NCBI GenBank assembly: GCA_016791445.1
Contig: JAEUMP010000012.1
Location: forward strand, 14,949 to 38,948
Reading direction: 5' to 3'
From: Hyphomonadaceae bacterium
Lineage (GTDB): Bacteria > Pseudomonadota > Alphaproteobacteria > Caulobacterales > Aquidulcibacteraceae
DNA: 24,000 nt
Shown piece by piece: positions 1 through 17,769 of the stretch; position 1 is the stretch's first letter, and each line of letters opens with the position of its first letter. The notes beneath the pieces are model-generated. The model had not been told where the DNA came from, did no database searches, and saw nothing but the letters and a program-made list of their open reading frames with translations. Position numbers and translations under genes: made by a program.

Positions 1-27
1 CACCGTGCGACGCCCGCGCCGAACCCG

Positions 28-222
28 ATGGCCAGATCGGACGCCGCCATCCTTGACGCCTTGCGCAACAACGGCGGCGCCCTCGTCGGAAGTCTTGCCG
101 CCATCGCCGCGTCCCTGCCCATGCCGGCGAGCACGCTGAGCGCATCGATCAGACGCCTCACCGAACGCGGGCGCGTGCGCCGGGACGCAAACGGTCTGTC
201 GCTCACGCCGCGCGCGGACTAG
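28..222 (+). CDS. Small winged-helix (MarR/ArsR-like) DNA-binding protein; possibly the C-terminal part of a longer ORF, since the frame is open back to base 1
   Basis: The 64-aa translation 'SLAAIAASLPMPASTLSASIRRLTERGRVRR' looks like an HTH recognition helix plus wing. There is no stop in this frame between base 1 and the ATG at 28. Confidence 0.4.
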   Translation: MARSDAAILDALRNNGGALVGSLAAIAASLPMPASTLSASIRRLTERGRVRRDANGLSLTPRAD

Positions 223-386
223 AGCCCGGGCATTTCGCCGTCATCCGCGCGGACCGCAGCGCGAGGCCCGGGCGTCGCGAAAATAATTCAGTCTCCCGCT
301 GCGGGGTTTTGCCGGCCCGTTTGTCTTTCCCCCTGAACGGCGCGCGCCAAGGCGCCGACAGACACCGCGTTGGGGAGACACACACC

Positions 387-3300
387 ATGAAACATGCCGA
401 CAAGGGCCCGCGTCACGGGCGCGCCTGCGATGCCCGCCGTCAAAAATCGCGCAACGGCGACCGCGACGCCGACGCGCGCGGCGCGCGCCGGCGCCACGCC
501 GCGCTCGCAGCATGTCTCGCCGCCGCCCTGCCGGCTGCGGCCGCGGCCCAGGCCCGCGACGGCGCAACGCCCGATGCCGCGAGCGCTGACCGCGCACGCA
601 CGCTCGTCGCCTTCGACATCGCCCCGCAACCACTCGCTGCAGCGCTGTCGGACTTCGCACGACAGGCCGGCGTGCCCGCCCTCTTCGCCTATGGCGACGT
701 CGCGCAGACCCGCGCCAATGGCGTGCACGGGCGCTTTACCCGCGAAGAGGCGCTTGAACGCCTGACGGCAGGGCTTGGACTTTCCGCGCGCCTGACGTCC
801 GCAGGCCTCGTTGTGGACGCGCCATCAGCGCTGGACCCCGACAGATCCGGAGGCGATGGCGCGGCGCGCACGGATGGCGCACACACGCAAACCTCTCCGC
901 CGAGCGGCGCCCGTGCGGGCGCGCCGCGCGCCGAGGCGCAATCGCCAAACGCCGGATCCGCGTCGGCGACCATGGGCGCGGCCGCGCCCTCAATGGACGA
1001 GGTCGTCGTCACCGGCACCCGCATTCGCGGCGCCCCGCCGACCGGCAGCCATGTGGTGACCATCGACCGCGACGCCATCGAGGCGACCGGCCGCACCTCC
1101 ATCCAGGACGTGCTGCAAACGCTGCCGCAGGCGTTTTCCGGCAGCCAGAACGAACTCACCCAGCTCAACTCCACCGCCGGCGGCCGCAACATCGCCTTCA
1201 GCGCCTCCGTCGACCTGCGCGGCCTCGGCGCCGACGCCACCCTCACGCTCGTCAACGGACGCCGTCTCGCGCCCGCAGGCTTCGGCAATTTCGTCGACAT
1301 CTCCGCTGTGCCGCTCGCCGCCGTCGATCGCGTCGAAGTGCTCGCGGACGGCGCGTCGGCGACCTATGGCAGCGACGCCGTCGGCGGCGTCGTCAACATC
1401 ATCCTGCGCCGCGACTTCAACGGCGCGGAGACGACCGTGCGCTACGGCGCAGCGACGGCGGGCGCGCTGGAGGAGAAAGGCCTTTCCCATGTCTTCGGCG
1501 CCACGCGCGGGCGCAGCGCCTTTCTCGCCGGCTACGAATACCGCGCCCGCGACGCCCTCGCCGCCAGCGACCGCGCCTTCGCCGCCGACACCGACCTGCG
1601 CCGCTTCGGCGGCTCGAACTTCTCGCGCACCAACGCCAATCCCGGCAACATCATCCGCGTCGGCACAACCGTCACCGCCTTCGCCATTCCCGCCGGACAG
1701 AATGGCATAACCCTGCGCCAGAGCGATCTCATTGCGGGGCAGCTGAACTTCCAGAACGGCAACGAAGGCGCATCGCTCCTGCCGGCGCAGGAAAGCCACG
1801 GGCTGTTCATGTCCGCGCGCCTGCCGCTCGGCGACAGGATCGAGCTCTTCGCCGACGCGCTCGGCTCACGACGCAAGGCGAACGCGTCCGACAACCAGCT
1901 CGCCACCACGCTCGTGGTGCCCGCCACCAACGCCTATCGCCAGCTCAACGGACTGTTCCCGGGAACCCAGCCGATTACCGTGGCCTACTTTCTCGGCGAC
2001 GATCTCGGGCCGCTGCGCTACGCCACCACCTCAGACACCCACGCGATCACCGGCGGCCTTGAGATCGACATCGCGCGCGCATGGCGTCTGGAAGCGACGG
2101 CCACCTTCGGCGGACACAGCGACGCCGTACGCTTTTCCAACGCCTTCGATTCCACCGCCATCGCCGGCGCGCTCGCCAGTAGCGATCCCGCCACCGCCTT
2201 CAACCCCTTCGGCGACGGCGCCCATACGCCGGCCGCCGTACTGCGCAATCTGACGCTGACCCAGGCGACGGACTCCGACTCCGACATCCGCGCCTACGCC
2301 ATCAAGGCGGATGGACCGCTCTTTGCGCTGCCCGCCGGCGTCGTGCGCGCCGCGGTCGGCGCTGAACGCCGCGAGGAAGCCTTCGCCATCACACGCGTCG
2401 AACGCCGCGCCTCGGGACTGCTCGTGCCCGCCGCCCTGCAGGCGCCTGGCGAACGCGCAGTGTCCGCAGTCTTCGGCGAACTCTACCTGCCGCTCCTCAG
2501 CGCCGAGGCCGGGCTGCCGCTTGTGGAAAGCCTCGCCGCATCGCTCTCCGTGCGCCATGAATCCTCCGACGATTTCGGCGACGCGACGACGCCGAAGGCC
2601 GGCGTGCGCCTGGATGCCGCCGGCGGCCTCAGTCTGCGCGGCGCATGGGGCAAATCCTTCAAGGCGCCGCAATTCGTGCAACTGCTCGGCGGCACCGGCG
2701 GCACGATCTCCTCGGCGCCGGTCTCCATCGATCCGTTCGCCACCAACGGCTCCACCGGCACGCTCCAGATCACCGGCGCCAACCCGAACCTGCGTCCCGA
2801 AACGGCGGAAACCTGGACGCTCGGTTTCGATCTCTCCCCGCCTGCGCTGAAGGGGCTCACGCTCAGCGCGACCTATTTCGACATCGACTTCGCCAACCGC
2901 ATCTCCACGCCCGGCAGCATTCTCGACGCGCTGCGCAATTCCGCCGCCTATGCGGGATTTCTCATCCGCGATCCGACACCCGAACAGATCGCCGCCTACC
3001 TCGCCATTCCGAGCCGGACCGCCGGAACCATTCCGCCCGACGGCATCGAGGCGATCTGGGACGAACGTCTGACCAATCTGGCGAGTCTGCGCGTGCGCGG
3101 CGTCGACCTGTCGGGCGCATGGCGCGTCGAGACCTCGGCCGGCGCCATCACGCTCGCCGCAAGCGCCAGCAAGCTCATGGAGTTCCGGCGGCAGTCCAAT
3201 CCCGTCGTGCCGGCGATCAATCCGCTCGACACCATCCTCAATCCGGTCGACTGGCGCGGACGGGCAAGCCTTGCCTGGAGCGGCGATCACTGGCGGCTCT

Positions 3301-3578
3301 CCGGCGCGCTCAACTACACCGACGACTATCTCGATACGCTGAGCACGCCCGCACGACGCATCGACGCCTGGCGCACGTGGGATGTCCAGATCGCACGCAC
3401 ATGGCGCGCCGATGCCGACAATGGGCAAAAGCCCGGCGTCGAGGCCACACTCAATGTCCGTAACATCACCGACGCCGATCCGCCCTTCGCCAACAATCCC
3501 GTCGGCATGGCGTTCGATACGCTCAACGCCTCGCCGCTCGGACGCTTTGTGTCTTTCGAGATCCGACGCCGATGGTGA
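387..3578 (+). CDS. TonB-dependent outer-membrane receptor/transducer with an N-terminal STN signalling domain (FecA/FpvA-like)
   Basis: The ORF-track frame 309-3578 begins at a TTG; I prefer the ATG at 387 (MKHADKG...), which has GGGGAG 9 nt upstream. A signal-like AALAACLAAALPAAAAAQA is followed by an STN-like segment (LVAFDIAPQPLAAALSDFARQAGVPALFAYGDV...GRFTREEALERLTAGLGL). Then come an Ala/Gly/Ser/Pro linker, a plug domain (DEVVVTGTRIRG...IEATGRTSIQDVLQTLP, RVEVLADGASATYGSDAVGGVVNIILR) and a long beta-barrel ending in an aromatic residue (...FEIRRRW). Confidence 0.9.
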   Translation: MKHADKGPRHGRACDARRQKSRNGDRDADARGARRRHAALAACLAAALPAAAAAQARDGATPDAASADRARTLVAFDIAPQPLAAALSDFARQAGVPALFAYGDVAQTRANGVHGRFTREEALERLTAGLGLSARLTSAGLVVDAPSALDPDRSGGDGAARTDGAHTQTSPPSGARAGAPRAEAQSPNAGSASATMGAAAPSMDEVVVTGTRIRGAPPTGSHVVTIDRDAIEATGRTSIQDVLQTLPQAFSGSQNELTQLNSTAGGRNIAFSASVDLRGLGADATLTLVNGRRLAPAGFGNFVDISAVPLAAVDRVEVLADGASATYGSDAVGGVVNIILRRDFNGAETTVRYGAATAGALEEKGLSHVFGATRGRSAFLAGYEYRARDALAASDRAFAADTDLRRFGGSNFSRTNANPGNIIRVGTTVTAFAIPAGQNGITLRQSDLIAGQLNFQNGNEGASLLPAQESHGLFMSARLPLGDRIELFADALGSRRKANASDNQLATTLVVPATNAYRQLNGLFPGTQPITVAYFLGDDLGPLRYATTSDTHAITGGLEIDIARAWRLEATATFGGHSDAVRFSNAFDSTAIAGALASSDPATAFNPFGDGAHTPAAVLRNLTLTQATDSDSDIRAYAIKADGPLFALPAGVVRAAVGAERREEAFAITRVERRASGLLVPAALQAPGERAVSAVFGELYLPLLSAEAGLPLVESLAASLSVRHESSDDFGDATTPKAGVRLDAAGGLSLRGAWGKSFKAPQFVQLLGGTGGTISSAPVSIDPFATNGSTGTLQITGANPNLRPETAETWTLGFDLSPPALKGLTLSATYFDIDFANRISTPGSILDALRNSAAYAGFLIRDPTPEQIAAYLAIPSRTAGTIPPDGIEAIWDERLTNLASLRVRGVDLSGAWRVETSAGAITLAASASKLMEFRRQSNPVVPAINPLDTILNPVDWRGRASLAWSGDHWRLSGALNYTDDYLDTLSTPARRIDAWRTWDVQIARTWRADADNGQKPGVEATLNVRNITDADPPFANNPVGMAFDTLNASPLGRFVSFEIRRRW

Positions 3579-5734
3579 GCGACGCGCGCACGCGCTGTCG
3601 CCTCGCGGTCCTTGCAGGCGCGCTCGCCGCACTCGTCGCCTGCGTCATCGGCGCAGGCGGCGCATGGGCGACCCCGCGCGCGCGCGACGCAAGTCTTGAA
3701 CGCGCACACGCCATGCAACACGCGCTCCTTGCCTTGGTCGATCTGGGCGGGCGCCGACACGGCATGACGCTGTCGCCCGATGGACGCACCATTGCTGTCT
3801 TTCGCCGCACCACACGCCTTCTTGAGAACGACTACCGCTACGAACTCCTGCTCGTCCCCCTCGACACACCCCCGCCCCTCGACAAGGCCCAAGTCACCAC
3901 ACGGGACACGACACCGGCCACGACCCCGGACATGGCGGCGGCGCGCATCCTCGCCGACGCCGGGGACGCCAACCTGCATACTGCAGACGGGCGTCCCTCC
4001 GGCGCGCTCGCCGACCGGATCGCACGCTGGTCCCCGGACGGACGCGAACTCGCCTATCTCGCCCACAGGCAAGACGTCATCTCGCTTGAGCGCGTGCGCA
4101 TCGCCGACGGCGGCGTTCGCGTCGTCGCCACGGGGCCAGGCGACATTGCCGACTTCGCCTGGCTTGCCGACGGCGGTCTCGTCTTTCGCCGCAACACTAC
4201 ACGGATCGCCCAGGCGCGCGCGTGGCGCGACGGCGCCGTCGCCGGCTATCGCGTCGACGATGCGTTCGATCCCGCCTTCAGCCTGAGACCGCAGAGCATC
4301 GCTCGCGGCGATGACGCGGTTTTCGTCGCTGCGCCCGACGGGCGCCTGCGCGCCGCCGCCCCGCACGAGGCCGCACGTCTCGCACCGTCGCCTGCACCTG
4401 CAGGGGCCATCGACAACGCCGCCGACGCGAGGGGGCGCCGCGCATGGCTCGCCCCGCGACATCCGGGCGATCGCGCCTATCGGCCGACGCTTGCGGTCTT
4501 CACAGACCACGAGGGACGCGCCCTCATGTGCGCCGATCCAGCCTGCCAGGGGCGACTGACACGCGTGTGGCGGACGCGCGAGGAAGTCATCTTCCAGAAA
4601 GCGGAAGGGTTCGCCGACGTCGAAACCGCGCTCTATGGCTGGCGTCCCGACAGCGGGCGCGTGCGCCTCATCCGGCGCGCCGACGACCTCCTGAACGATT
4701 GCGCGCTTGCCGCCGCGCGGCTCATCTGTCTTCACGAGGCCGCGCTCTCACCGCGCCGCGTCGTCGCCGTCGCGCTGTCCGACGGCCGGCTTGCCGCGAT
4801 CCACGATCCCAACCCCTCCTGGCGGGGGGCGCCCCTGACCGCCGTCGAGCGTCTCGACGGTCACGACCATCTCGGCAACGCCTTCTTCGCCCGCATCGTG
4901 CGGCCCGCAGGTCACCGGCGCACCGAGCGCTACCCGCTCGTCATCGTGCAATACCGCGCGCGCGGCTTTCTGCGGGCAGGCACGGGCGGCGAATATCCGA
5001 TCCACATGTTCGCGGCCCGCGGCTATCTGGTGGCCAGCATGGATCGCCCGGATCCTCGCACCCTCCACGCCGAGCTGAGCGCCGCCGACCTCTCGCGGCG
5101 CACCGAGTTCGATGGGAGCGAACAGTCAATGAAGCAGTCCGCGCTCGAAACGCTGATCGCGCGCCTTGACGCGCGCGGTCTCATCGATACCGGCCGCATC
5201 GCCATCACCGGCATGAGCGACGGCGCCGAGACCGTCTATTGGGCGCTCACGCGACCGACCGCCTTCGCCGCCGCCGTCACAAGTTCCCCGCCCATCGACC
5301 CGAGCGCCTGGACGCTCAGTTCGGAACGATTCCGTCGCCTGCGGCGCGCCGAGGACGCCGCGAGCGGCGACTGGCCGGATGCAAACCCCGACTGGGCCGC
5401 CTGGTGGGCGCGCAACACCACGACACGACGCGCCGAACACATTGTCACGCCGCTGCTCATGAACCTCTCCGAAAGCGAGGCGCTGCGCGGCTTTCCGCTC
5501 GCCTCGCGCCTCAACGATCTCGGCAAACCGGTCGAGACCTATATCTATCCCGGCGCCTTCCACGCCAAATGGCGCCCGCAGCAGATCCTCGCCGCCCAGA
5601 CACGCGCCCTCGACTGGATCGATTTCTGGCTCCTCGACGCGCTCAACCCCGCTCCCGACGATCCAGGGCGCGCCGGACGCTGGCGCGCCATGCGCGACGA
5701 TCATCGCTCCCGCCTGCCGGGCACGCCGCCCTAG
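3572..5734 (+). CDS. Lasso-peptide isopeptidase candidate (S9 prolyl-oligopeptidase fold, AtxE1/AtxE2-like)
   Basis: The 720-aa product has an N-terminal half typical of a beta-propeller (repeated SPDG/ADGG strands) and a C-terminal alpha/beta-hydrolase. The hydrolase carries a GxSxG nucleophile elbow (ITGMSDGAE), an acidic stretch (PLLMNLSESE) and a His (YPGAFHAKW). The start ATG overlaps the receptor stop (ATGGTGA). The gene lies next to lasso B/C genes and a TonB-dependent receptor, the context known for AtxE-type isopeptidases. The N-terminus MVSDARTRCRLAVLAGALAALVACVIGAGGAWA|T resembles a Sec signal peptide. Confidence 0.75.
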   Translation: MVSDARTRCRLAVLAGALAALVACVIGAGGAWATPRARDASLERAHAMQHALLALVDLGGRRHGMTLSPDGRTIAVFRRTTRLLENDYRYELLLVPLDTPPPLDKAQVTTRDTTPATTPDMAAARILADAGDANLHTADGRPSGALADRIARWSPDGRELAYLAHRQDVISLERVRIADGGVRVVATGPGDIADFAWLADGGLVFRRNTTRIAQARAWRDGAVAGYRVDDAFDPAFSLRPQSIARGDDAVFVAAPDGRLRAAAPHEAARLAPSPAPAGAIDNAADARGRRAWLAPRHPGDRAYRPTLAVFTDHEGRALMCADPACQGRLTRVWRTREEVIFQKAEGFADVETALYGWRPDSGRVRLIRRADDLLNDCALAAARLICLHEAALSPRRVVAVALSDGRLAAIHDPNPSWRGAPLTAVERLDGHDHLGNAFFARIVRPAGHRRTERYPLVIVQYRARGFLRAGTGGEYPIHMFAARGYLVASMDRPDPRTLHAELSAADLSRRTEFDGSEQSMKQSALETLIARLDARGLIDTGRIAITGMSDGAETVYWALTRPTAFAAAVTSSPPIDPSAWTLSSERFRRLRRAEDAASGDWPDANPDWAAWWARNTTTRRAEHIVTPLLMNLSESEALRGFPLASRLNDLGKPVETYIYPGAFHAKWRPQQILAAQTRALDWIDFWLLDALNPAPDDPGRAGRWRAMRDDHRSRLPGTPP

Positions 5735-7560
5735 CCCGACAGCGCCGCGCGTGCGGCCTGTGCCTCGGCGCCGCGCCGCAGCCGCCGCAACCAGAGCTCC
5801 GCGGCAAGATGCACCATCAAGGCGCTGGAGACCGCGCCGTCGCTCACCGTATCGGACGCAAGGAGACGCCGGGCGGTCGCATCATCGAGAAGGCCCAGAC
5901 GCCTGAGCTCGCCGTCGTGCAGCACCGCGCGCATGAAGGCGAGATTGCGCGACACGACAGCTGCGAAGAAGCGCGTGGTCTCACCCTTGGTGGTGCGCGC
6001 CGCCACCGACGGCGAGAGCCGTGATGCAAACGCATCGCGCACCAGGCCGCGCTCACGACCGCCATGGGTCATCACATAGGCCGGGATCGACAGACACGTC
6101 TCGATGACCGGCTGGGACAAAAGCACCGGCGCACTGCGCACGCGCGTATTGAGCACGCCCGGCGCCTGATAGCGCACCGCGTCGAGGAGATGGGCCACAC
6201 GCAGCGCCTGCGCGGGCGGCTGGCGCGCGCCGGTCGCCAGCCAGGGATGACGTTCAAGCGCGTCTCCCGCGCTGGCGCGCGATGATCCGGCGCGCGCGCG
6301 CAAGAGCGGCGCCCGCGCCAGTCCATGAAGCGCTGCGACCCACGCCACCGCCCAGATTGACCGCCCCGTCAGACGCGCAACCGCCTCCACGATCGCGCCG
6401 ACCTCACGCGCCGTCTCGCCCAGCCACACCGCGTCCGCCGCGATCAGCGGCGAACGACTGCGGTGAAAGAGATGGTCCCCCGCCTGCCCCGACGCCACGA
6501 AATCCACCCCAAGACGGTGCGCCGTCTCCAGTAGCGTCGTGTTGGCGAAACCGAGCAGCGAGGTCGTCGGAGAGACGAAAAGCGGCGCCTCCAGCACGCG
6601 CGCATAGTCGACCGCCGCAGGCGTCATCTCCACTTCGATGACCTCCCTGCCCCAACGCGCCGCCGCCGCGCGCGCCATCTGTCGCTCGTCGCCTTCCGGC
6701 ACATCGCGCGCATATTCGTTCACGCAAAGGACCTCGCACGTATCCGGCGCGCCCTCTTGCGCCAGACACGCCAGGACGATGCTGGAATCGAGCCCGCCCG
6801 AGAGACGCACCATGGCGCGCCGCGCGGTTGTCCCCCAGGCGCGCACCGCAAGCGTCACACTTGATGAAAGGCGCATCGCCGCGTCCGCCGCGCTCTCACG
6901 CACGCCGCCCGCGCGCCGCCGCGCGGGCGCGAAATCCTGCGGCCGCCAGAGTGTGTCGCGCGACACCGTCTCGCGTGAGAACGTGAAACGCTCGCCGGGC
7001 TGCACCAGGGTGACGCCCTTAAGCCCCGTGCGTGCGGACGCAACGCCCGGGTCTTTGAGGAACGCCGCCAGATAGGCGCAATCCGGCAAAAGCGCCCCGC
7101 CGAGTGCGGCGAAATCCTCCGCATGCGAGAAGACCACATGCACCGCGCCGATCTGTGCGTAGTGTGCATGACGATGTCCGCTCGGATCGCGCAGCACATG
7201 GACGAGGTCATAGCCCCGGTCGATCAGCACCGCGACAAACCCGCCCCAATAGTCCCTGAAGAGCGCCTCCCCGCCACCCGCGCAGATCCGACCGGTCTCG
7301 CGCGTCTCCATGTCGGTCGCGCGTGCGCCCGTGACGGTGAACAACGCACCGAAGATCGCGCCTCGCCCCTGCGAGAGCGTCAACGCCGCCACATCCTCGG
7401 GCGCTGCGCGCACCAGCAGGAGGACCCCGCGCCAGTCCACGATCACCGACCAGGCGCATGTCTCGCCGGTCGGGCCCGTCAGCGCGTCCGCCATGCGCCG
7501 CGCTTCGGCCTCGCGCACGCGGTCCACAGGCGTCCAGCGCAGGAGGACAAACCGCAGCAC
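5731..7560 (-). CDS. Lasso-peptide cyclase (C protein; asparagine synthetase B-like, isopeptide-bond forming)
   Basis: The 609-aa product carries the PP-loop ATP-pyrophosphatase motif (VRLSGGLDSSIVLACLA) inside an AsnB-like C-terminal domain, with a degenerate N-terminal domain. The GTG start at 7560 lies 9 nt after the B gene stop. An alternative ATG at 7494 cannot be excluded. Confidence 0.85.
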   Translation of the reverse strand: MLRFVLLRWTPVDRVREAEARRMADALTGPTGETCAWSVIVDWRGVLLLVRAAPEDVAALTLSQGRGAIFGALFTVTGARATDMETRETGRICAGGGEALFRDYWGGFVAVLIDRGYDLVHVLRDPSGHRHAHYAQIGAVHVVFSHAEDFAALGGALLPDCAYLAAFLKDPGVASARTGLKGVTLVQPGERFTFSRETVSRDTLWRPQDFAPARRRAGGVRESAADAAMRLSSSVTLAVRAWGTTARRAMVRLSGGLDSSIVLACLAQEGAPDTCEVLCVNEYARDVPEGDERQMARAAAARWGREVIEVEMTPAAVDYARVLEAPLFVSPTTSLLGFANTTLLETAHRLGVDFVASGQAGDHLFHRSRSPLIAADAVWLGETAREVGAIVEAVARLTGRSIWAVAWVAALHGLARAPLLRARAGSSRASAGDALERHPWLATGARQPPAQALRVAHLLDAVRYQAPGVLNTRVRSAPVLLSQPVIETCLSIPAYVMTHGGRERGLVRDAFASRLSPSVAARTTKGETTRFFAAVVSRNLAFMRAVLHDGELRRLGLLDDATARRLLASDTVSDGAVSSALMVHLAAELWLRRLRRGAEAQAARAALSG

Positions 7561-7569
7561 CGGCTCCGC

Positions 7570-8202
7570 TCACACCGACGCCAGCGGCGTGAAGGACCGG
7601 CAATGGTCCAGCGCGTCGTTGATCACCACGCCCGCGCATTGCACCCAGCAGTGCGCCGCAAACGGTCGCGCCCGCACGCCGACAACGAGGTCCGGGCGAT
7701 GGCGCCGCGACACCAAAAAGTGCATCAGCGCGAGCGAATCGAAGAGACACACCCGTCGTGCAGGATACCAAAGCCGCGTCCGGTAGAATTGCGCGACGTC
7801 CGCCGACAGGACCGTGCGGGCGTTGCCCGCACGCCGCTTGCGCCGACCGAGCGCGCGAAACGCCCGCTCGAGATTGCCGCTCTGAAGATCCATCGCTGCG
7901 CGTGCGCACGCCCAAAGGACACGCGCCCCTGAAGCCCGCGACGGCGCTCCTTCCAGCGGCGGTTGTGCATCGTGCGGTCGCTCGATCCTGCGCGCCATCG
8001 CGATCGCGGCGCCTCCGGGCGTCAGAAGGCCTTCCTTGAGGAGGCGGTCGATGAGCGCGCCGCGCGCCGGCCCGGCCGTTTCGGCGAGACGCGCAAGGGG
8101 CGCTGCCCAATACCGGTTGCGGCGCAGATCGAGAAAGAGGAGGCAATCCGCATCGACGCACGCGCGAACATGCGCAGGCAGGCCATAACCATCGATCGAC
8201 AT
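7570..8202 (-). CDS. Lasso-peptide B protein (fused B1 PqqD-like leader-recognition element and B2 transglutaminase-like Cys protease)
   Basis: The 210-aa product has an N-terminal segment (VRACVDADCLLFLDLRRNRYWAAPLARL...IDRLLKEGLL) resembling a PqqD/RRE fold. The C-terminal segment (RVCLFDSLALMHFLVSRRHRPDLVVGVRARPFAAHCWVQCAGVVINDAL) matches the McjB-type Cys...His...Asp core. GGGAG lies 6 nt upstream of the ATG. Confidence 0.85.
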   Translation of the reverse strand: MSIDGYGLPAHVRACVDADCLLFLDLRRNRYWAAPLARLAETAGPARGALIDRLLKEGLLTPGGAAIAMARRIERPHDAQPPLEGAPSRASGARVLWACARAAMDLQSGNLERAFRALGRRKRRAGNARTVLSADVAQFYRTRLWYPARRVCLFDSLALMHFLVSRRHRPDLVVGVRARPFAAHCWVQCAGVVINDALDHCRSFTPLASV

Positions 8203-8252
8203 CTGACGCTCCCAAAATGCGCGATGTGCGTGCGAAACGCTTCCAGCGCCAA

Positions 8253-8280
8253 GGAGACGCGCCGTCGCCGGCGCGCCTCC
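8253..8280 (-). promoter_or_regulatory. GC-rich stem-loop in the A-B intergenic spacer (candidate attenuator or mRNA-stabilising hairpin)
   Basis: On the minus-strand RNA, GGAGGCGCGCC-GGCGAC-GGCGCGUCUCC forms an 11-bp stem (one G-U pair) with a 6-nt loop. It starts 15 nt after the precursor stop codon and has no following U-tract. Confidence 0.5.
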
Positions 8281-8294
8281 CCGTGGCGCGCGCC

Positions 8295-8423
8295 CTATTC
8301 GTCGCGCGCTTCCGGCTCGACATAGTTCTCCTTGAGGATGTCGTCCGGCAGCCCCAGCGTGCGCTCGCTCGCGCGTCCGAGATCGATGACGCCGTCTTCG
8401 ATGGGATCGTGTTGGGCTTGCAT
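8295..8423 (-). CDS. Lasso-peptide precursor (A peptide), 42 aa: MQAQHDPIEDGVIDLGRASERTL|GLPDDILKENYVEPEARDE
   Basis: I hand-translated the minus strand. GGAGG lies 5 nt before the ATG (complement of 8421-8423) and the TAG stop is the complement of 8295-8297. The ORF is too short for the ORF track. It sits directly upstream of B-C on the same strand. Thr is at -2 relative to the predicted core Gly1, and Glu is at core position 9 (ring acceptor). An in-frame alternative ATG at 8435 would add MEVN but has no SD. Confidence 0.8.
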   Translation of the reverse strand: MQAQHDPIEDGVIDLGRASERTLGLPDDILKENYVEPEARDE

Positions 8424-8526
8424 GTTCACCTCCATGGTGCGGCCGCCGTTTGCGGCCACGAACACGATCGCGCCGACCTGCAGTGCTTCCCAGTCAACTC
8501 TGGTGAATGTTTCGTGCGATGTCCGC

Positions 8527-9219
8527 TCAGTCGCCGTTTCCGCCGAGCGCGCGCAGGACGGCGCGCTCGCGCAACAGCTTTGCCGCTTTCACGCGTCTGC
8601 CATGATAGCGTCGCAGCGCCGCCCGCAGCGACGAGGCCGCCCCCTGCCGAAGACGCGCGGCGAGGTCGTCGAGTTCGCGATCGACATCGCCAAAGAGCTC
8701 GGCCTCCGCGCGCCTTGCGGCATGAAGACGGTCATCGGCATTGACGCCCGCGCGCCTGAGTTCAGGATTGGCGCGCCCCTCCACCGATTGCAGGATCGCC
8801 GCCACACGCAACGGATAGCCGGAGTTCGCTTCAACGCCCGTAGCAGCGCCGCCTGCAACGAGGGCGCCCGCTGCAGGCACATCCACGACAGCGTCATTCG
8901 CGATAGCGTCCTTCGCAACCGGGACCGCGTCGGCGTGCGTTGCGAGCGCGCCCGCCGCCAGCCAGGCGCGCCACTCATAGAGCGCGCGCAGTTCACTTTC
9001 GCTCCAGAGCGAAACGAAAAAGCCCCTGCTCGGTCGCGCGGTGATCAGACGTTCCGCAGCGAGCCGCACGAGCGCTTCGCGCACAGGCGTGCTGCTTGCG
9101 CCCAGTCCATCGGCCAGCGCGCCGACATCGAGACGCGCATGCAGGCGATAGTCGCCGGCAAGGAGCCGGCGACGTATCTCGTGATAGACACGATCGCTGA
9201 CAGGCGGATCAGCCGCCAT
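8527..9219 (-). CDS. GntR-family transcriptional regulator
   Basis: The N-terminal wHTH (SDRVYHEIRRRLLAGDYRLHARLDVGALADGLGASSTPVREALVRLAAERLITARPSRGFFV) matches the GntR signature and is followed by a helical effector domain. I prefer the ATG at 9219 (MAADPP...) over the track start at 9264. That start overlaps the stop of the upstream dioxygenase gene by 11 nt. Confidence 0.85.
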   Translation of the reverse strand: MAADPPVSDRVYHEIRRRLLAGDYRLHARLDVGALADGLGASSTPVREALVRLAAERLITARPSRGFFVSLWSESELRALYEWRAWLAAGALATHADAVPVAKDAIANDAVVDVPAAGALVAGGAATGVEANSGYPLRVAAILQSVEGRANPELRRAGVNADDRLHAARRAEAELFGDVDRELDDLAARLRQGAASSLRAALRRYHGRRVKAAKLLRERAVLRALGGNGD

Positions 9220-10174
9220 CCACCGGCTGTGTCTGTGCAGACGCGCCGACCCGATAGTGCGCATCGAGTTCGGCCTGGATGTCCGGCGTCAGCGCGTCGA
9301 TATGGGGCGCGCGTGCGCACGTCTCGCCGAGGGCCGCGATCGGGTCCTGCCCTTCCCAGCCGCCGAGATTGGGACGATGCATCCGGTAGCCGATCAGGCG
9401 CTGCAGTTCCTCGGGAAACGACCGCGCCACGGACGGCGGATAGGCAAGGAACTGGTTTTCATACTGTTTCAGCCAGCCGAGACAGTACGAGACGATGACG
9501 CCCGTGCGCGGGTGCGCCGAGCGGTTGGCGCCGGCGCCATGCGTGAGCGCGCCGATGAAGAGAAGCGCCGAACCGCGCGCCATCGCGCCGGCCACGCTGG
9601 TGTGCGGATCGACCTCGCGGTCGAGCGCCCCGCGATGACTGCCGGGCCAAAGGCGCGTGGCGCCGTTCGCTTCAGTAAAGTCGCTGACCGCCCACATCAC
9701 GTTGAGCAGCCATGGCGTCTCGCCCTTGGGACAGGGCCACATTTCCTCGTCCCGGTGCGGCGCCTGGGCGCGCTCGCCTGGATGCACCTGCACGGCCTGG
9801 GTGAGATTGAGCTGGATGCAGTCGCATGCCGGGGCGAGAAGCGCGTCGGCTATTGCGACAATCACCGGGTGGAGCACGAGCGCGTGCGCCGACGGCGCCT
9901 TGTCGAGAAGTCCCCCGACACGGGTCGTGCGCCAGCCGTAGAAATCGCCCACGCAGCGCGGCGTGGCGGCAAGCCACGGCGCGAGTTCATCGTCGAGGCG
10001 CGCGACATCCTGCGGGTCGATGAGCGCGTCAAGAATGACAAAGCCGTCGCGTCCGAGCGCCGCGAGCGCCGTCTCGACGATCGACTGCAGCTGCGGCGCA
10101 CCGGACGACGTTGCATCGTCCGCTCGGCGGCATGGACCGGTCCCGGCTGGGGTGTTTGCAACAAGAGGGTTCAT
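9209..10174 (-). CDS. Phytanoyl-CoA dioxygenase (PhyH) family Fe(II)/2-oxoglutarate-dependent oxygenase
   Basis: A HxD...H facial triad is visible (QAPHRDEEMW ... GALTHGAGAN), with a downstream Arg (HPRTGVIVSY) and typical PhyH blocks (ANGATRLWPGSH). I prefer the ATG at 10174 (MNPLVAN...), which has GGAG 7 nt upstream, over the track start at 10240. Confidence 0.85.
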   Translation of the reverse strand: MNPLVANTPAGTGPCRRADDATSSGAPQLQSIVETALAALGRDGFVILDALIDPQDVARLDDELAPWLAATPRCVGDFYGWRTTRVGGLLDKAPSAHALVLHPVIVAIADALLAPACDCIQLNLTQAVQVHPGERAQAPHRDEEMWPCPKGETPWLLNVMWAVSDFTEANGATRLWPGSHRGALDREVDPHTSVAGAMARGSALLFIGALTHGAGANRSAHPRTGVIVSYCLGWLKQYENQFLAYPPSVARSFPEELQRLIGYRMHRPNLGGWEGQDPIAALGETCARAPHIDALTPDIQAELDAHYRVGASAQTQPVDGG

Positions 10175-10236
10175 GGAAAATCTCCGTGGTGGGTGGCGTC
10201 GGCATGGATGGGCGCGCCTCGACGCGCCCGCACGGC

Positions 10237-10866
10237 TCACGCCGCCGCCGGCAAGACGGCCGCAGCAAAGCGCGTCATGGGACCAGTGAGGCTGTTGCGT
10301 GCGCGCACGGCGTTCAGCCCCTCCGGGGTGATCGCTGCGGTGATCGCGCGCACGCGTTCACGCCCCATGCGCATTGTCGGTCCAAGCGGCGCTGCGTCCC
10401 AGCCGATCGCCATCGCCAGCGGCGCGAGCGCGGCGCCCGCCACGAAGGTCACACGCTCCATGCCGAAGAGAAGTCCCGTCTCCATGATGCCGGCGATCAT
10501 GCGCGCCAGGAGCGCCTGACGCGGCGCGCCCTTGGCGATCTGCGGCGCAGGACAAAAGCGCGACACTTCCCAGATCCGCGCCCCGCGCGGCACGCCCGTC
10601 ACGCACAGATGCGCAAACACCTCGCTCATGAGATGCGCCCGCGCCGTCGGCAGGAGACGCACCGAACCGGTGACGGCGCCGTCGTGCGCCGCCGTCTCCA
10701 CGAGATAGACCGCATCGGCGGCGTCGAACTGGTCGATCTCAAGCCCCTGCGGCGCCTCAAGTCCCCAGCGCATGCGATCGATGAAAACCGACTTGCGATG
10801 GCGGTGCATCTCCATCAGCGCGTGCCGGAAGAGATGGCGATTGTCTTCGGTGATGATGTGGATCAT
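10237..10866 (-). CDS. Acyl-homoserine-lactone synthase (LuxI family)
   Basis: The 209-aa product shows conserved LuxI blocks: FRHALMEMHRHRKSVFIDRMRWGL, EIDQFD, GSVRLLPT and IWEVSRF. GGAG lies 5 nt upstream of the ATG. Confidence 0.9.
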   Translation of the reverse strand: MIHIITEDNRHLFRHALMEMHRHRKSVFIDRMRWGLEAPQGLEIDQFDAADAVYLVETAAHDGAVTGSVRLLPTARAHLMSEVFAHLCVTGVPRGARIWEVSRFCPAPQIAKGAPRQALLARMIAGIMETGLLFGMERVTFVAGAALAPLAMAIGWDAAPLGPTMRMGRERVRAITAAITPEGLNAVRARNSLTGPMTRFAAAVLPAAA

Positions 10867-10922
10867 GGGCGCTCCGTCGAAAGCCGCCGGAGCATGGGCC
10901 GCCCGTCGCGCGCCGCGATATG

Positions 10923-10936
10923 GGTCCCACAGGACC
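10923..10936. promoter_or_regulatory. 14-bp palindrome GGTCC-CACA-GGACC in the luxR-luxI spacer (candidate operator)
   Basis: This is a perfect 5-bp inverted repeat with a 4-bp spacer, centred about 63 nt upstream of the luxI ATG. It lies in a locally AT-richer patch that also contains TTGTCA on the coding strand. Confidence 0.3.
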
Positions 10937-10956
10937 TCTTGACAAATTTTCCGTGT

Positions 10957-11694
10957 CTAATCCGCCAGATCGTCAATGCGGATCTGGCCGTCGAGCACGG
11001 CGCGCACGACTGCCTGCACCCTGAACGCCACGCCGTAGCGCTTCTTGGCGCGCTCGATGGTGTTGTGGACGGTGCGCTCATGAATGCCCAGCATCCGCCC
11101 GATGACCCAGTCGCTCTTGCCTGCGCCCGCAAGCGCCAGACACTCGCGCTCGCGCGCGCTCAGTGCGGGGCGCAATGCGTGCGCGCCGTCGTCGAGCAAG
11201 GCCCGCGCGCGCTCGTGCGCATAGACCGCCATGAGGAAGACGGCCGGCACCTGAAGGGGATCGACGCCGTCGGGCCCGGGCACCAGCGAACACGAGGCAG
11301 GTAAGGCGCCCGGAGAATGGATGGGGATGGTCAGGCCGTTGGCGAGCCCGATCGCGGCCGCGTCCTGGAGAATGTCGCGCTGCAGACGCGTGAGACGGCG
11401 CCCCTTGAGCACGTCGTCCCAGAAGAACGGCACAGCACTCGTTCGCGCCGCCATGAAGACGGGGTCGTGCGCGGCGTAGTTTTCCGCAGAGAACCGCGCC
11501 AGCCACGCCGCCGGATAATTGATCATGTTCACCGCACCGGGCGGGGGGCGCAACGGATCGACGTGCGAACAACACGCCACATAGGCAAAGCCCATCGCCG
11601 CCATGTCGGCGAACAGGACGTCGCGCACCGCGTCTGCGCTCGCCGCGGCGCGGCACTTCTCCATGAACTCGATCGCGACCCGGCTGGACGGCAT
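10957..11694 (-). CDS. LuxR-family acyl-HSL-responsive transcriptional regulator
   Basis: The N-terminal autoinducer-binding-like domain (GFAYVACCSHVD...YPAAWLARFSAENYAAHDPVF...PFFWDD) is followed by a C-terminal LuxR HTH (LSARERECLALAGAGKSDWVIGRMLGIHERTVHNTIERAKKRYGV). I prefer the ATG at 11694 (MPSSRV), which has GGAG 5 nt upstream, over the TTG at 11796. Confidence 0.9.
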   Translation of the reverse strand: MPSSRVAIEFMEKCRAAASADAVRDVLFADMAAMGFAYVACCSHVDPLRPPPGAVNMINYPAAWLARFSAENYAAHDPVFMAARTSAVPFFWDDVLKGRRLTRLQRDILQDAAAIGLANGLTIPIHSPGALPASCSLVPGPDGVDPLQVPAVFLMAVYAHERARALLDDGAHALRPALSARERECLALAGAGKSDWVIGRMLGIHERTVHNTIERAKKRYGVAFRVQAVVRAVLDGQIRIDDLAD

Positions 11695-11795
11695 GCGTGC
11701 TCCACTGCCGCGCCCCGTCTTGCATTCACACAATCGCGACGCCGGGACGCGGATTGACTGCGCCTCAAGTCGCTGCGGGCGCGCAGTGCAGGACA

Positions 11796-11813
11796 ATGGG
11801 CAAAACTGCCCAT
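11796..11813. promoter_or_regulatory. 18-bp tra-box/lux-box-like palindrome ATGGGCA-AAAC-TGCCCAT
   Basis: This is a perfect 7-bp inverted repeat with a 4-bp spacer. It matches the Agrobacterium TraR tra box ATGTGCAGATCTGCACAT (recalled from memory) at 14 of 18 positions. Its centre is about 110 nt upstream of the luxR ATG. Confidence 0.4.
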
Positions 11814-12307
11814 CGATGGCTCACAACTTCGCATAGTCGTTCACCTTGGCGCGATCTCGTCAGGAATTGCGCACGCGTTTCGGCGAAGCGCGTCTCCTGA
11901 CGCGCGACGCGTCCTTCTGCTGCTGCAAGAGTGCATCCATGTTCGATGGAGGCGGTGTCGGAATGAGCGCGCCGAGCGCCTCCTCGCAGCGCAGGGCCAT
12001 CGCCGCCCTCATCGGATGACCAAAGGTCGACTGCCTCTCAGGACTCATGCCGCTGTCACGCGCGCAGCCCCATGCCGGCACGACGCGCCGCCTCGCTGTG
12101 CGACCAGTTCTCGCCGACGCGGCGGCGCCTGATCGCCACGCCCAATGCAGCGAACAATTCCGGCGCAGTCTTCAACATCGGCCATATATGGCGCATTGAA
12201 CGTCGCAAACCACGTCAATACGCCAAAGATGGCCAATTCCAACACCGCCATCGGAGCGTGCGAACTTCGCGCCCGCGCCCAGCGGATCGGCCCGAACTTT
12301 GATCGCT

Positions 12308-13648
12308 TCAACGCGCTTGTGCGTCCTGCGCCGCCACCGCGCGCGCGAAGGCGCCGAGGCCCGACCAAAGCACCAGAGCCGACAACGGCAGCGCGCACGC
12401 CGCAACGATCGCCATCGCGTATCGCAACATCGCGTCGTCGCGGAACAGGAAGTCGTTCAGCGCGGCGACCGCCATCGGCCCCAGTCCGAGACCGATCAGG
12501 TTCGCCATGAAGAAATAGAGCGCCGTCACCTGCCCCCGAAACGCATTGGGCGTGATCAACTGCAGGGCGGCCCCGGCGACGCCGCCGTGCATGGACGACA
12601 ACAGCACCGCCGGCGCCAGGAGCGCAAAGGCGCCCACAGGGCTCGCCATGAGGGGCGCTGCGACAAAGAAAGGCGCCGACGACGCCACCGCTATGATGAC
12701 GGCGATGAGGTGTCCCGATCGCAGGCCCTTGCGGAACAACAGATCTGCCAGCACACCCCCGAGGATCAAGCCAGCAGCCCCGCCCGCCGCCATGATCACG
12801 CCGAAGATCATGCCGGCGTCAGCCGGCGCCATACCATAGGTGCGGGCAAAGAAGGTCGGGTACCACGCGAGCCCGCCATAGATGACGAAGGTCAGCAACG
12901 ACAGGCCGAGAAAGTGTCCGCCATACGCGCGCCAGCGCGCGCCGACATAAGCAAAGACAGCGCCGAATTTTTCCGCACGCACGCCCTCGCCGCCACGACG
13001 CGCCGGCTCGCGCACGCTCAGCATCAACAGCGCCACCAGAAGTCCAGGCAGACCGACCATGAAGAATACAAGCCGCCAGGGCTCCGTCTCGCCGAGCACA
13101 GGCAATACCGGCGCTGGCGACTGCGTGGCGAATTTGACGACTAGGCCGCCGACGATCAAAGCAATGCCCGATCCCAGCGGCACGCCGATCGAATAGACCG
13201 CCATCGCGCGACCGAGACGGTGCTTCGGGAAGTAGTCGCTCAGCATCGAATAGGCGGCCGGCGACAACGCGGCCTCTCCGACGCCGACGCCCAATCGCGC
13301 CAGGAAGAGTGCGGCATAGGTCGGCGCCAGACCGCACAGCGCCGTCATCACGCTCCAGAAGGCGATGCCGATGCTGATGATCCGCTGGCGGTTGGCGCGG
13401 TCGGCCAGATACCCGAGCGGCAATCCCATCAGCGTATAGAAAGCGGCAAACGCCAGACCATGAAGAATGCTGAATTCGAAGTCAGATATCTGCAGATCCG
13501 CGCGTATCGGCGCCACCAGCAGACTGAGGATCATCCGGTCGATGAAAGAAACCGTGTAGGCCACAAGCAGCACCGCCACAGCCCACCAGGCAAGCGTCGG
13601 CGCAGGCCACGGCGCCTCGCCGCGAGCGGGATCGGTGTGCGTGTCCAT
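12308..13648 (-). CDS. Major facilitator superfamily (MFS) transporter
   Basis: The 446-aa product is polytopic and hydrophobic, with about 12 hydrophobic segments. It carries the MFS loop 2-3 motif (GLPLGYLADRANRQR) and ARLGVGVGEAALSPAA. Confidence 0.9.
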   Translation of the reverse strand: MDTHTDPARGEAPWPAPTLAWWAVAVLLVAYTVSFIDRMILSLLVAPIRADLQISDFEFSILHGLAFAAFYTLMGLPLGYLADRANRQRIISIGIAFWSVMTALCGLAPTYAALFLARLGVGVGEAALSPAAYSMLSDYFPKHRLGRAMAVYSIGVPLGSGIALIVGGLVVKFATQSPAPVLPVLGETEPWRLVFFMVGLPGLLVALLMLSVREPARRGGEGVRAEKFGAVFAYVGARWRAYGGHFLGLSLLTFVIYGGLAWYPTFFARTYGMAPADAGMIFGVIMAAGGAAGLILGGVLADLLFRKGLRSGHLIAVIIAVASSAPFFVAAPLMASPVGAFALLAPAVLLSSMHGGVAGAALQLITPNAFRGQVTALYFFMANLIGLGLGPMAVAALNDFLFRDDAMLRYAMAIVAACALPLSALVLWSGLGAFARAVAAQDAQAR

Positions 13649-13659
13649 GGGCAGTCGCC

Positions 13660-14166
13660 TCAGCAGATTTCAAAGATGGTGTAGCGGACGCCGGCGCCGG
13701 TCCTTCGTCCCAATCCGATCGCCACGGTCCGGTTCAGCCACCCATAGCGCGGGTCGGCCGTCTCAAAGACCGGGGTCACGCGAAAATAATAGCGCTGCGG
13801 ATCCAGGCATTCGACTTCGTCTGGATTCCGGAACACGCCGAGCACGTCCTTCGGTATGACCAGTCTCCCCTGATAGGTCACATAGATGTCCGCATCATCA
13901 TGCGTGCGCCACAGCGACCGCACGTCGATCAGCGTCAGCGCGTCGCCTGCCTCGTCCACGCCAAGTTCCGACCAGTCTCCGCCGCCCGCACACACCACGC
14001 CGCGCACCCGGTCGCCGGTCACGGTCCCCCCGCCGATGTAACTCACGCGCCGGTTGCGCCACGGCGATCGGCCCAGCGCGATCGGCGCATCCTTTTCCAG
14101 CGTAATGTCGGCGACACACAGCGGGCGCGTGATCACCGCTCCAAAATCCTCGATTGCTGTCGTCAT
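13660..14166 (-). CDS. DUF3237-like beta-barrel protein of unknown function
   Basis: Using the ATG at 14166 (MTTAIEDFG...; GGAG upstream) gives 168 aa. The pattern SYIGGGTVTGDRVRGVVCAGGGDWSEL...DVRSLWRTHDDADIYVTYQGR...FRVTPVFET resembles the DUF3237 family. The stop is 11 nt from the MFS start, so the two are probably co-transcribed. Confidence 0.55.
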   Translation of the reverse strand: MTTAIEDFGAVITRPLCVADITLEKDAPIALGRSPWRNRRVSYIGGGTVTGDRVRGVVCAGGGDWSELGVDEAGDALTLIDVRSLWRTHDDADIYVTYQGRLVIPKDVLGVFRNPDEVECLDPQRYYFRVTPVFETADPRYGWLNRTVAIGLGRRTGAGVRYTIFEIC

Positions 14167-14450
14167 GCGTCTGGTCTCCAGCCCTTTGTATGTCGCGCCG
14201 CCTACGGCGCGCTCACGCCACGCCTGCATCTTTGACTTCACTTCCTGAGTTGCATCTTGCCCCGATCTGCGTGGCTGATGCCGCCCCGCCCCGGCTGTTC
14301 GCTCCTGCCCTTCACCCCCGCACTCCACCGCACTTCACCCCGGCGCGTCTCTGCCGAGCCTCGCCGCTGACCTGCGCCCCGCGCGCCAGGCCGCTCACGC
14401 CCCGGTCGCGCGCGTACGAGCGCGCCATATCGCCTGCCGGACGCCCCGCA

Positions 14451-17391: not shown

Positions 17392-17769
17392 ATGATTACT
17401 ATGAGTTCGCCGAAATCGAGATCAGCCCTTGCCCAGATGGGGAAGGATTTGCGCGCCGCACGGCTACGCCGCCAGATAACGGCGGTAGATCTCGCCGCAC
17501 GCGCTGGAACCTCTCCGAACACAGTTGCGAGGCTGGAAAAGGGGGATTCAGGGGTCGCAATTGGGACCCTGGCCGACGTGCTGGTCGCGCTCGGGCTCAT
17601 CGCGCGGCTGGGCGACCTTGTGGACATTCGCAAGGACGAGCTTGGTCTTGCCCTCACCGTTGAGCGCATGCCGCGACGCGCGCGCGCGCCCAGAACGCGC
17701 GGCAAAGCAAAAGAGGGAGCGACCCGGACGACGCCGGGCGCCTCGGACCCTGACGGCGCGGCATTCTGA
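17392..17769 (+). CDS. hipB: XRE-family HTH antitoxin (HipB-like)
   Basis: The HTH ITAVDLAARAGTSPNTVARLEKGDSGVAIGTLADVLVALGL is followed by a basic disordered tail. The stop overlaps the hipA start (TGATG). An alternative ATG at 17401 is possible. Confidence 0.8.
   Translation: MITMSSPKSRSALAQMGKDLRAARLRRQITAVDLAARAGTSPNTVARLEKGDSGVAIGTLADVLVALGLIARLGDLVDIRKDELGLALTVERMPRRARAPRTRGKAKEGATRTTPGASDPDGAAF

Follow-up and report, generated by a model that had tools for sequence, protein, structure and literature searches.

Why would a bacterium make a lasso peptide and keep, beside the genes for making it, an enzyme that unties it and a receptor built for signalling, when the sigma and anti-sigma factors that usually accompany such a receptor are missing? 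This is the question raised by a lasso peptide locus from an uncultured Hyphomonadaceae bacterium, which lies in the 24 kb stretch of DNA analysed here (the window, to which coordinates without a locus prefix refer) and whose lasso genes were first outlined at 387-8423. To our knowledge, isopeptidase-linked lasso peptides generally lack antibiotic activity, and we know of no reason found since AtxE2 for making a lasso and then untying it. The locus is very likely a canonical isopeptidase-clade (astexin/AtxE2-type) lasso system in which the fecI-fecR pair has been lost and to which a quorum-sensing module is attached. It is a new peptide within the known isopeptidase-type lasso family, and as such it adds a sequence and no new principle.

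The five genes that a sequence-only reading had outlined are found at the places and on the strands that it gave. A TonB-dependent transducer of 1063 amino acids (aa; 387..3578, + strand) and an S9-family hydrolase of 720 aa (3572..5734, +) converge on the genes for the putative lasso cyclase C (5731..7560, -), the protease B (7570..8202, -) and the precursor A (8295..8423, -). The start of the hydrolase gene overlaps the receptor stop codon by 7 nt, and its 3' end is overlapped by that of C by 4 nt. The astexin/AtxE-type identity proposed in the same reading is borne out by the identities of the genes and by the published architecture of the isopeptidase clade, which is described as 'almost constant' and includes a sigma/anti-sigma pair and a GntR regulator (PMC9266682). 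A TonB-dependent receptor beside the isopeptidase, a GntR gene before the precursor and the lack of an ATP-binding cassette (ABC) exporter are three features that are all present. The locus is larger than 387-8423, and it also comprises the GntR gene (8527..9264, -) and a conserved phyH-luxI-luxR block that extends to about 11.8 kb.

With Pfam alone, the hydrolase is matched by the generic Peptidase_S9 family (7e-10), and the NCBIfam matches of the receptor are all far under their cutoffs. Both results would suit an explanation in which a common type of prolyl-oligopeptidase or dipeptidyl-peptidase and an equally commonplace siderophore receptor stand beside the lasso genes A-B-C by chance. 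However, this is extremely improbable, because the hydrolase passes the NCBIfam equivalog NF033523 ('Atxe2 family lasso peptide isopeptidase') with 534.6 bits where 400 are required, among solved structures it comes closest to AtxE2 (PDB 5TXC, E=6e-87, over residues 138-716), and the receptor-isopeptidase pair adjoins C-B-A-GntR in the great majority of 80 loci. These loci are the best 80 of the 386 isopeptidase loci obtained in a search over 185,579 species genomes, and almost every one of them has the order receptor->isopeptidase-> <-C<-B<-A<-GntR (Hyphomonadaceae, Caulobacteraceae and Sphingomonadaceae). The nearest isopeptidases, 43-49% identical, come from metagenome-assembled genomes (MAGs) of Terricaulis and other Hyphomonadaceae.

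The protein consists of a signal-peptide-like segment (aa 10-33), a beta-propeller and an alpha/beta-hydrolase part. Ser549 (nt 5216-5218) aligns with the position that differs between the two AtxE2 depositions (Ser in 5TXC, Ala in 5TXE), and Ser549, Glu636 and His664 are invariant in the alignment of relatives. The suggestion that the S9 protein is an AtxE-like isopeptidase has held, since it falls in the AtxE2 family and lasso genes adjoin in about 70 related loci. It is thus a predicted isopeptidase with an intact Ser-His-Glu set, encoded adjacent and convergent to A-B-C, and its hydrolysis of the cognate lasso would be expected to add 18 Da, from 2183.04 to 2201.05 Da (monoisotopic).

The substrate is encoded by gene A, a precursor of 42 aa recognised by its sequence and by a GGAGG Shine-Dalgarno element (an alternative ATG lies at 8435), with the leader MQAQHDPIEDGVIDLGRASERTL followed by the core GLPDDILKENYVEPEARDE. 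The leader ends in VIDLGRASERTL, with Thr at -2. In the cleavage region SERTL/GLPDDILKE (cleavage at the slash), Thr -2, Gly1 and Glu9 are in place and core positions 7 and 8 hold Leu and Lys, which leaves a nine-residue Gly1-Glu9 ring as the only possibility. The predicted lasso GLPDDILKENYVEPEARDE has 19 residues, is strongly acidic and has a monoisotopic mass of 2183.04 Da. Against the benenodin-family model the precursor is sub-threshold (25.4 vs 33 bits). The precursors of the related loci L008, L007 and L032 share with it the pattern G-x3-x3-K-E-[NS]-[FY]-V-x-P-E-A-R-D, and those of the nearest relatives (GTYDILLKESFVIPEARD, GIYDPIRKENFVDPEARDLQ and GIYEPLAKENFVEPEARD) form one family with the core of the window; the pattern of Thr -2, Gly1 and acceptor is kept in the orthologues of A. 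Most close relatives have two tandem precursor genes with different cores, and the window has room for, and encodes, one (8202-8527, compared with L007-L032).

Gene B encodes a protein of 210 aa in which a transglutaminase-like cysteine protease is fused to a RiPP precursor recognition element (RRE). It is matched by Transglut_core3 (2.9e-17) and by lasso_biosyn_B2 (4.4e-22; 78.8 bits, cutoff 33), and its protease residues Cys152 and His184 are invariant in 42 orthologues. The N-terminal RRE (aa ~4-75, with the motif LFLDLRRNRYW) was not matched by Pfam PqqD, and a PDB search with the single sequence of B gave nothing relevant; only the profile of the 42 sequences reached the RRE protein TfuB1 (6JX3_B, E=0.005, positions 4-75). 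This match, together with lasso_biosyn_B2, agrees with the earlier description of B as an RRE-protease fusion. Protein C (609 aa) is Asn-synthase-like (Pfam Asn_synthase 5.1e-23; 82.7 bits, cutoff 21), with a PP-loop SGGLDSS at aa 254-260; a single-sequence PDB search with it found no relative. Its domain and its conserved synteny beside B in the relatives point to a lasso cyclase. In the 92-nt gap between A and B there is a GC-rich hairpin (8253..8280, -), an inverted repeat with a 12-bp stem and a 4-nt loop whose arms GGAGACGCGCCG and CGGCGCGCCTCC are 92% complementary, and it may govern how much precursor transcript is made relative to enzyme transcript.

The claim that the locus lacks a McjD-like ABC exporter is upheld over the whole 24 kb: no ABC transporter was found in Pfam scans of the large open reading frames (ORFs) across the window, no Walker A motif occurs anywhere in it, and its sole LSGGQ belongs to a spurious frame within the isopeptidase gene. 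A major facilitator superfamily (MFS) transporter is encoded at 12308-13648 (-), and the occurrence of a homologue in only one related locus makes it an improbable candidate for the absent lasso exporter.

In the mechanism proposed here, B and the ATP-dependent cyclase C would process A into a threaded lasso of 19 residues with a Gly1-Glu9 ring. The lasso would leave the cell by a route that is not encoded at the locus, as no exporter gene is present, and the transducer would take it back across the outer membrane. The isopeptidase would then open the isopeptide bond (+18 Da) and linearise the lasso, probably in the periplasm because of its signal-peptide-like N-terminus.

The receptor is recognised by its Plug domain (Pfam 1.2e-18) and its barrel (5.7e-34), with a weak match to the STN signalling domain. 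A signal-peptide-like segment at aa 37-56 is followed by the STN region at aa 72-143 (nt 600-815), a low-complexity linker, the plug and the barrel; a TonB-box-like DEVVVTG lies at nt 996-1016, and the barrel ends in RRRW. In the NCBIfam match to the FecA N-terminus, receptor residues 65-139 align with residues 21-95 of FecA. The evidence for the domain comes from the family: STN is matched by 62 of 67 orthologous receptor N-termini (Pfam, best E=1.6e-13), and the profile of the family N-terminus finds in the PDB the signalling domains of FpvA, FoxA, PupA, HasR, FemA, FecA and PupB (E=7e-24 to 5e-12). On a hidden Markov model (HMM) of the family, the signalling domain of the window scores 59.4 bits within a family range of 40-79, the window sequence itself being in the training set, and this score is as good as in the relatives that bear FecIR. 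The earlier claim of an STN receptor stands, then, as regards the domain, by way of the family, and falls as regards a Pfam match of the receptor's own sequence, which is sub-threshold. By this family evidence the receptor carries an N-terminal signalling domain before the plug and the barrel.

Some other properties of these receptors can be mentioned. A highly charged and unusually long stretch of about 35 residues precedes the signal-peptide-like segment (window 387-500), so translation may in fact begin at a later codon. A linker of about 60 residues rich in Ala, Gly, Pro and Ser (window 816-995) joins the signalling domain to DEVVVTG. The receptors of Hyphomonadaceae are about 150 residues longer than those of sphingomonads. 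Two isopeptidase-linked receptors (L076:7386-9806 and L084:7425-9845) are without a typical signalling domain (13-17 bits); the gene of each is immediately preceded by a FecI-like gene, and FecR was not detected in either locus.

The partners of these receptors were surveyed in the 70 loci with an STN receptor beside the isopeptidase, which were classified with FecR and FecI HMMs built from Pfam-verified seeds. The fecI-fecR pair lies directly upstream of the receptor in 45 of the 70 loci and fecR only in a further 4, so that FecR is directly upstream in 49/70 (45 of the 49 with FecI). Another 9 loci have the pair at some other place within 10 kb, 10 lack it, and the remaining 2 have too little upstream sequence. 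An STN receptor with a sigma/anti-sigma pair is the norm of the family, the pair being usual and not universal. Hence the idea that the lasso is a cell-surface signalling ligand, which the sequence-only reading had raised for this locus, is family-wide: it applies to the whole family (49/70 with FecR), and it does not survive as a peculiarity of the window. The peculiarity of the window is the loss of the sigma pair. In the ancestral state, seen in about 70% of relatives, binding of the ligand would be passed from the signalling domain to FecR, which would release a FecI-type extracytoplasmic function (ECF) sigma factor and switch on the receptor-isopeptidase operon.

In the genome studied here no FecR or FecI was matched at E<=10 from 15 kb upstream to 23 kb downstream of the receptor (about 39 kb), and two strains 98-99% identical to it were likewise without a match. 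The absence of a FecI/FecR pair directly upstream of the receptor, as the earlier reading had it, is thereby confirmed by the HMM scans; its suggestion that the partner pair merely lies outside the window fails over the 15 kb upstream. The small winged helix-turn-helix gene that the same reading had seen upstream of the receptor (28-222) is neither a separate gene nor a replacement regulator. It represents the last part of a 221-aa ORF that the edge of the window interrupts (1..222, +; seen in full in longer contigs of the same organism, L001:5986-6651), with a HipA_C fragment (Pfam 1.6e-14, profile positions 128-207 of 213) followed by a winged helix (HTH_IclR 1.1e-5), and is the tail of a HipA-like remnant. 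The 221-aa ORF marks the border of an upstream island and does not belong to the lasso system.

That the pair was once there is suggested by the DNA that remains. The conserved and promoter-like region at the 5' side of the receptor gene (250..386, +) can be aligned, down to the ribosome-binding site and the ATG, with the spacer between fecR and the receptor gene in the related loci L028 and L041, both of which carry fecIR. An AT-rich element, GAAAATAATTC, lies at 279-289 and matches exactly within the aligned L028/L041 spacer; this 11-mer occurs once in the window, where 0.05 would be expected with one mismatch allowed, and among 90 loci it is found only at the receptor 5' position, in this genome's own contigs, L028 and L041. 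A promoter function of 250-386 may be supposed from these alignments. Since this spacer can still be recognised by alignment in front of the receptor gene, fecIR appears to have been lost secondarily, and since the nearest relatives (L008, L032, L041, L015 and L018) have fecIR, its absence is derived. We conclude that the breakpoint of the loss probably lies at about the 3' end of fecR and left in place the putative ancestral promoter region and an undegraded signalling domain.

Upstream of the receptor come, in order, the HipA remnant, a 296-aa protein of no assigned family, a 1581-aa SIR2_2 protein, a pair of small ORFs, a large serine recombinase of 845 aa and an AP2-like ORF (L087:1-9836, L171:1689-13250); beyond the AP2-like ORF there are sugar-biosynthesis genes (DegT aminotransferase, epimerase) and then the contig end. 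This stretch looks like a mobile or defence island. Searches of metagenome contigs with the serine recombinase found only recombinases 36-48% identical to it. An origin of the HipA fragment by recombination with a full-length hipA (that at 17769-19001, or the luxR-adjacent one in the 99% strain) was considered and rejected, the identity being about 32-42% over 36-66 residues. In the preferred reading, fecI-fecR would have been lost at the junction now held by the recombinase/SIR2/HipA-remnant island, with the signalling domain and the 5' region intact, and the ancestral ECF-sigma feedback on the receptor-isopeptidase operon would be broken or re-wired here.

The loss is not confined to the window. 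The ten relatives without FecIR have unrelated genes at the junction (a subtilase, an OmpA-like protein, an epimerase, an ImuB-like protein and, in L040, a phage integrase), from which it follows that the loss is recurrent, and they keep full-score signalling domains (56-79 bits). One of them, L067 (Asticcacaulis benevestitus), was tried as the benenodin-1 locus and rejected, as the benenodin-1 core is not encoded there, and it is used only as a FecIR-less relative. What the signalling domain does after such a loss can be read in two ways. It could be a vestige. The operon would then be constitutive or controlled by other factors such as GntR or LuxR, and import would be all that the receptor does. 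That the system tolerates the loss in 10/70 relatives with unrelated genes upstream, and that L076 and L084 have receptors without a typical signalling domain, speak for this, to which we give slightly less than an even chance. However, retention of the domain in all ten FecIR-less relatives would be unexpected if it had long been useless, and the stretch upstream of the receptor yielded no alternative promoter or operator. The other possibility is that the receptor still signals, with the lasso as inducing ligand, to an anti-sigma/ECF sigma pair encoded elsewhere in the genome. The undegraded domain (59 bits on the family HMM, range 40-79), the retained ancestral 5' region and the 9/70 relatives in which the pair is present and non-adjacent, including on the far side of the cluster, so that adjacency is not obligatory, all agree with it. 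Nevertheless, it is rather unlikely, given the empty scans of the 15 kb upstream and the 23 kb downstream of the receptor, and the domain may be retained simply because the loss is recent, the 98-99% identical strains being in the same state.

On the side of production, the gene directly upstream of A encodes a GntR-family regulator (Pfam GntR 1.1e-16) that is kept in most relatives. Its start is overlapped by the 3' end of a gene for a PhyH-family Fe(II)/2-oxoglutarate dioxygenase (9209..10240, -; Pfam PhyH 2.6e-28), which is followed in the upstream direction by genes for a LuxI-type acyl-homoserine-lactone (AHL) synthase (10237..10866, -; Pfam Autoind_synth 2e-20) and a LuxR-type regulator (10957..11796, -; ORF to 11796, called as 245 aa with the start at 11694; Autoind_bind 1.9e-31, GerE 7.4e-10). 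luxR, luxI and phyH are tightly packed and on the same strand as A-B-C. Upstream of luxI, right after TGTCAA, there is a lux-box-like palindrome, AGAGGTCCTGTGGGACCCAT (10920..10939, -), which is unique in the window. In 17 relatives the same site also holds a palindrome, with half-sites that covary (GGTCC/GGACC, GGCAC/GTGCC, GGCCT/AGGTC, AGGGG/CCCCT), which is the signature of the operator of a dimeric regulator. Syntenic orthologues of PhyH (next to gntR), LuxI and LuxR were found in 32, 36 and 32, respectively, of the 70 related loci, and the carriers of luxR-luxI-phyH include all close Hyphomonadaceae relatives and many sphingomonads.

As far as sequence can tell, the set at the window locus is complete: an autoinducer synthase, an autoinducer-binding LuxR protein, a phyH gene after luxI and, ahead of luxI, a palindrome of the lux-box type. 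Lasso production is probably under quorum-sensing control, in that a LuxR-regulated luxI-phyH-gntR unit, codirectional with A-B-C and directly upstream of them, would set it. In sphingomonads phyH also lies directly downstream of luxI in the luxR-luxI-phyH arrangement, and it has been proposed to be part of a quorum-sensing-regulated operon (PMC3704786, PMC4288048). A role of PhyH as a lasso-tailoring enzyme was considered and is less favoured, as no core residue was seen that separates the relatives with phyH from those without it. For this reason, and because of the link to luxI in sphingomonads in papers that say nothing of lasso genes, PhyH is provisionally placed in the quorum-sensing module. 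The fusion of luxR-luxI-phyH to a lasso cluster was not found described in the openly searchable literature, and its novelty is unproven.

Several points weigh against the reading of the locus given so far. The score of STN on the receptor sequence alone is under the Pfam gathering score (20.4-21.6 vs 28.4 bits), and C is under the NCBIfam cutoffs for lasso and macrolactam cyclases (77 vs 300 and 30.5 vs 525). The conserved 5' region of the receptor is common to only two relatives and shows no promoter consensus; a sigma-70 promoter scan of window 1-12200 gave no sites, and the terminator-like matches in the same interval were level with shuffled controls. Insertion of the island between fecR and the receptor had to be rejected as well, because sugar genes and not fecIR are on the island's far side, so that a simple insertion is not the explanation of the loss. 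Export, re-import and hydrolysis of the lasso are all three proposed by homology, and quorum-sensing control of A-B-C is argued from gene order and overlap.

What do these arrangements mean for the role of the lasso? In about half of the 70 loci (Hyphomonadaceae and Sphingomonadaceae) luxI-phyH-gntR stands head-to-tail with A-B-C, and fecI-fecR, the STN receptor and the isopeptidase stand on the other flank. It can be proposed, tentatively and with more doubt than confidence, that isopeptidase-clade lassos are extracellular factors made under quorum-sensing control and that the cell surface senses them when they come back. If this were true, the lasso would lie between two signalling systems, AHL on the side of production and an ECF sigma factor on that of uptake and degradation, and the window would be a natural 'sensor-less' variant. 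Two useful leads arise from the comparison: FecI/FecR with a signalling-type receptor is the rule and is lost sporadically without decay of the signalling domain, and about half of the relatives have the biosynthetic operon physically joined to a quorum-sensing module whose lux box covaries. The quorum-sensing module is the most promising lead on the role of isopeptidase-linked lasso peptides. The lasso as a regulated and sensed extracellular factor becomes a testable question, for which this strain offers a natural fecIR-null comparison.

Some related loci are built differently. Eight of them (L024, L026, L031, L034, L042, L048, L049 and L058) have fecI-fecR-receptor-isopeptidase, sometimes as two tandem sets, and within 10 kb neither a C nor a B homologue was detected. 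These biosynthesis-less loci include Steroidobacter and other Gammaproteobacteria as well as some sphingomonads, and they may be uptake and degradation modules for the lasso peptides of other cells.

Beyond luxR the neighbourhood is variable. The strains L089 and L090, those 98-99% identical to the genome studied here, match window 1-11881 with 98.2% nucleotide identity and are unrelated beyond it; past about 11881, just beyond luxR, their next genes are hipA and one for a GGDEF/EAL protein, whereas those of the window encode the MFS transporter, a DUF3237 protein (13660-14328, -) and a second TonB-dependent receptor, which has no signalling domain (14595-16778, +). Because the strain match stops there, the lasso and quorum-sensing block ends at a strain-variable junction. 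The window also has a full-length HipA kinase gene (17769-19001, +), 6 kb beyond luxR, and the sister strains have a different HipA (29% identical) directly beside luxR, these copies being too divergent for recent duplicates.

Among the known systems, the closest comparison is with the astexin-2/-3 cluster of Asticcacaulis excentricus (AtxE2, 5TXC/5TXE). There too GntR, A, a fused B and C converge on a receptor-preceded isopeptidase, an ABC exporter is lacking, the acidic core has a nine-residue ring and the catalytic Ser is conserved. The window differs from it in having no FecI/FecR beside the receptor, a core sequence of its own with Glu instead of Asp as acceptor, a single precursor gene and an attached luxR-luxI-phyH. 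The biochemistry of such isopeptidases has been described for astexins and AtxE2 and for the sphingopyxin I isopeptidase (PMC9266682). The rubrinodin cluster also brings together an isopeptidase, a TonB-dependent receptor and lasso A-B-C (PMC9266682), but it has an ABC transporter and a FecI/FecR pair, and the window has neither.

The Terricaulis and Hyphomonadaceae MAG loci L008, L032, L007 and L041 are the nearest relatives (isopeptidases 43-47% identical), and they share with the window the precursor family (for example GTYDILLKESFVIPEARD and GIYEPLAKENFVEPEARD), the order luxR-luxI-phyH-gntR-A-B-C and the lux box. Unlike the window, L008, L032 and L041 have fecI-fecR directly upstream of the receptor; most of the four have two precursor genes, and none has the recombinase/SIR2 island. 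With the transducers FecA, FpvA, PupA and HasR, the receptor has in common an N-terminal signalling domain followed by plug and barrel. However, those proteins have a FecR/FecI-type partner pair that is adjacent or otherwise known, while no such pair is linked to the receptor of the window, and the presumed ligand of the receptor is a lasso peptide instead of a siderophore or haemophore, with a low-complexity linker of about 60 residues as a further difference. Finally, the novR/novI module of Sphingomonadaceae has the same three genes in the same order as the quorum-sensing module of the window. In the papers that describe it (PMC3704786, PMC4288048), neither lasso genes nor GntR, TonB, asparagine synthase or transglutaminase are mentioned, whereas in the window phyH overlaps gntR and the lasso genes A-B-C follow.

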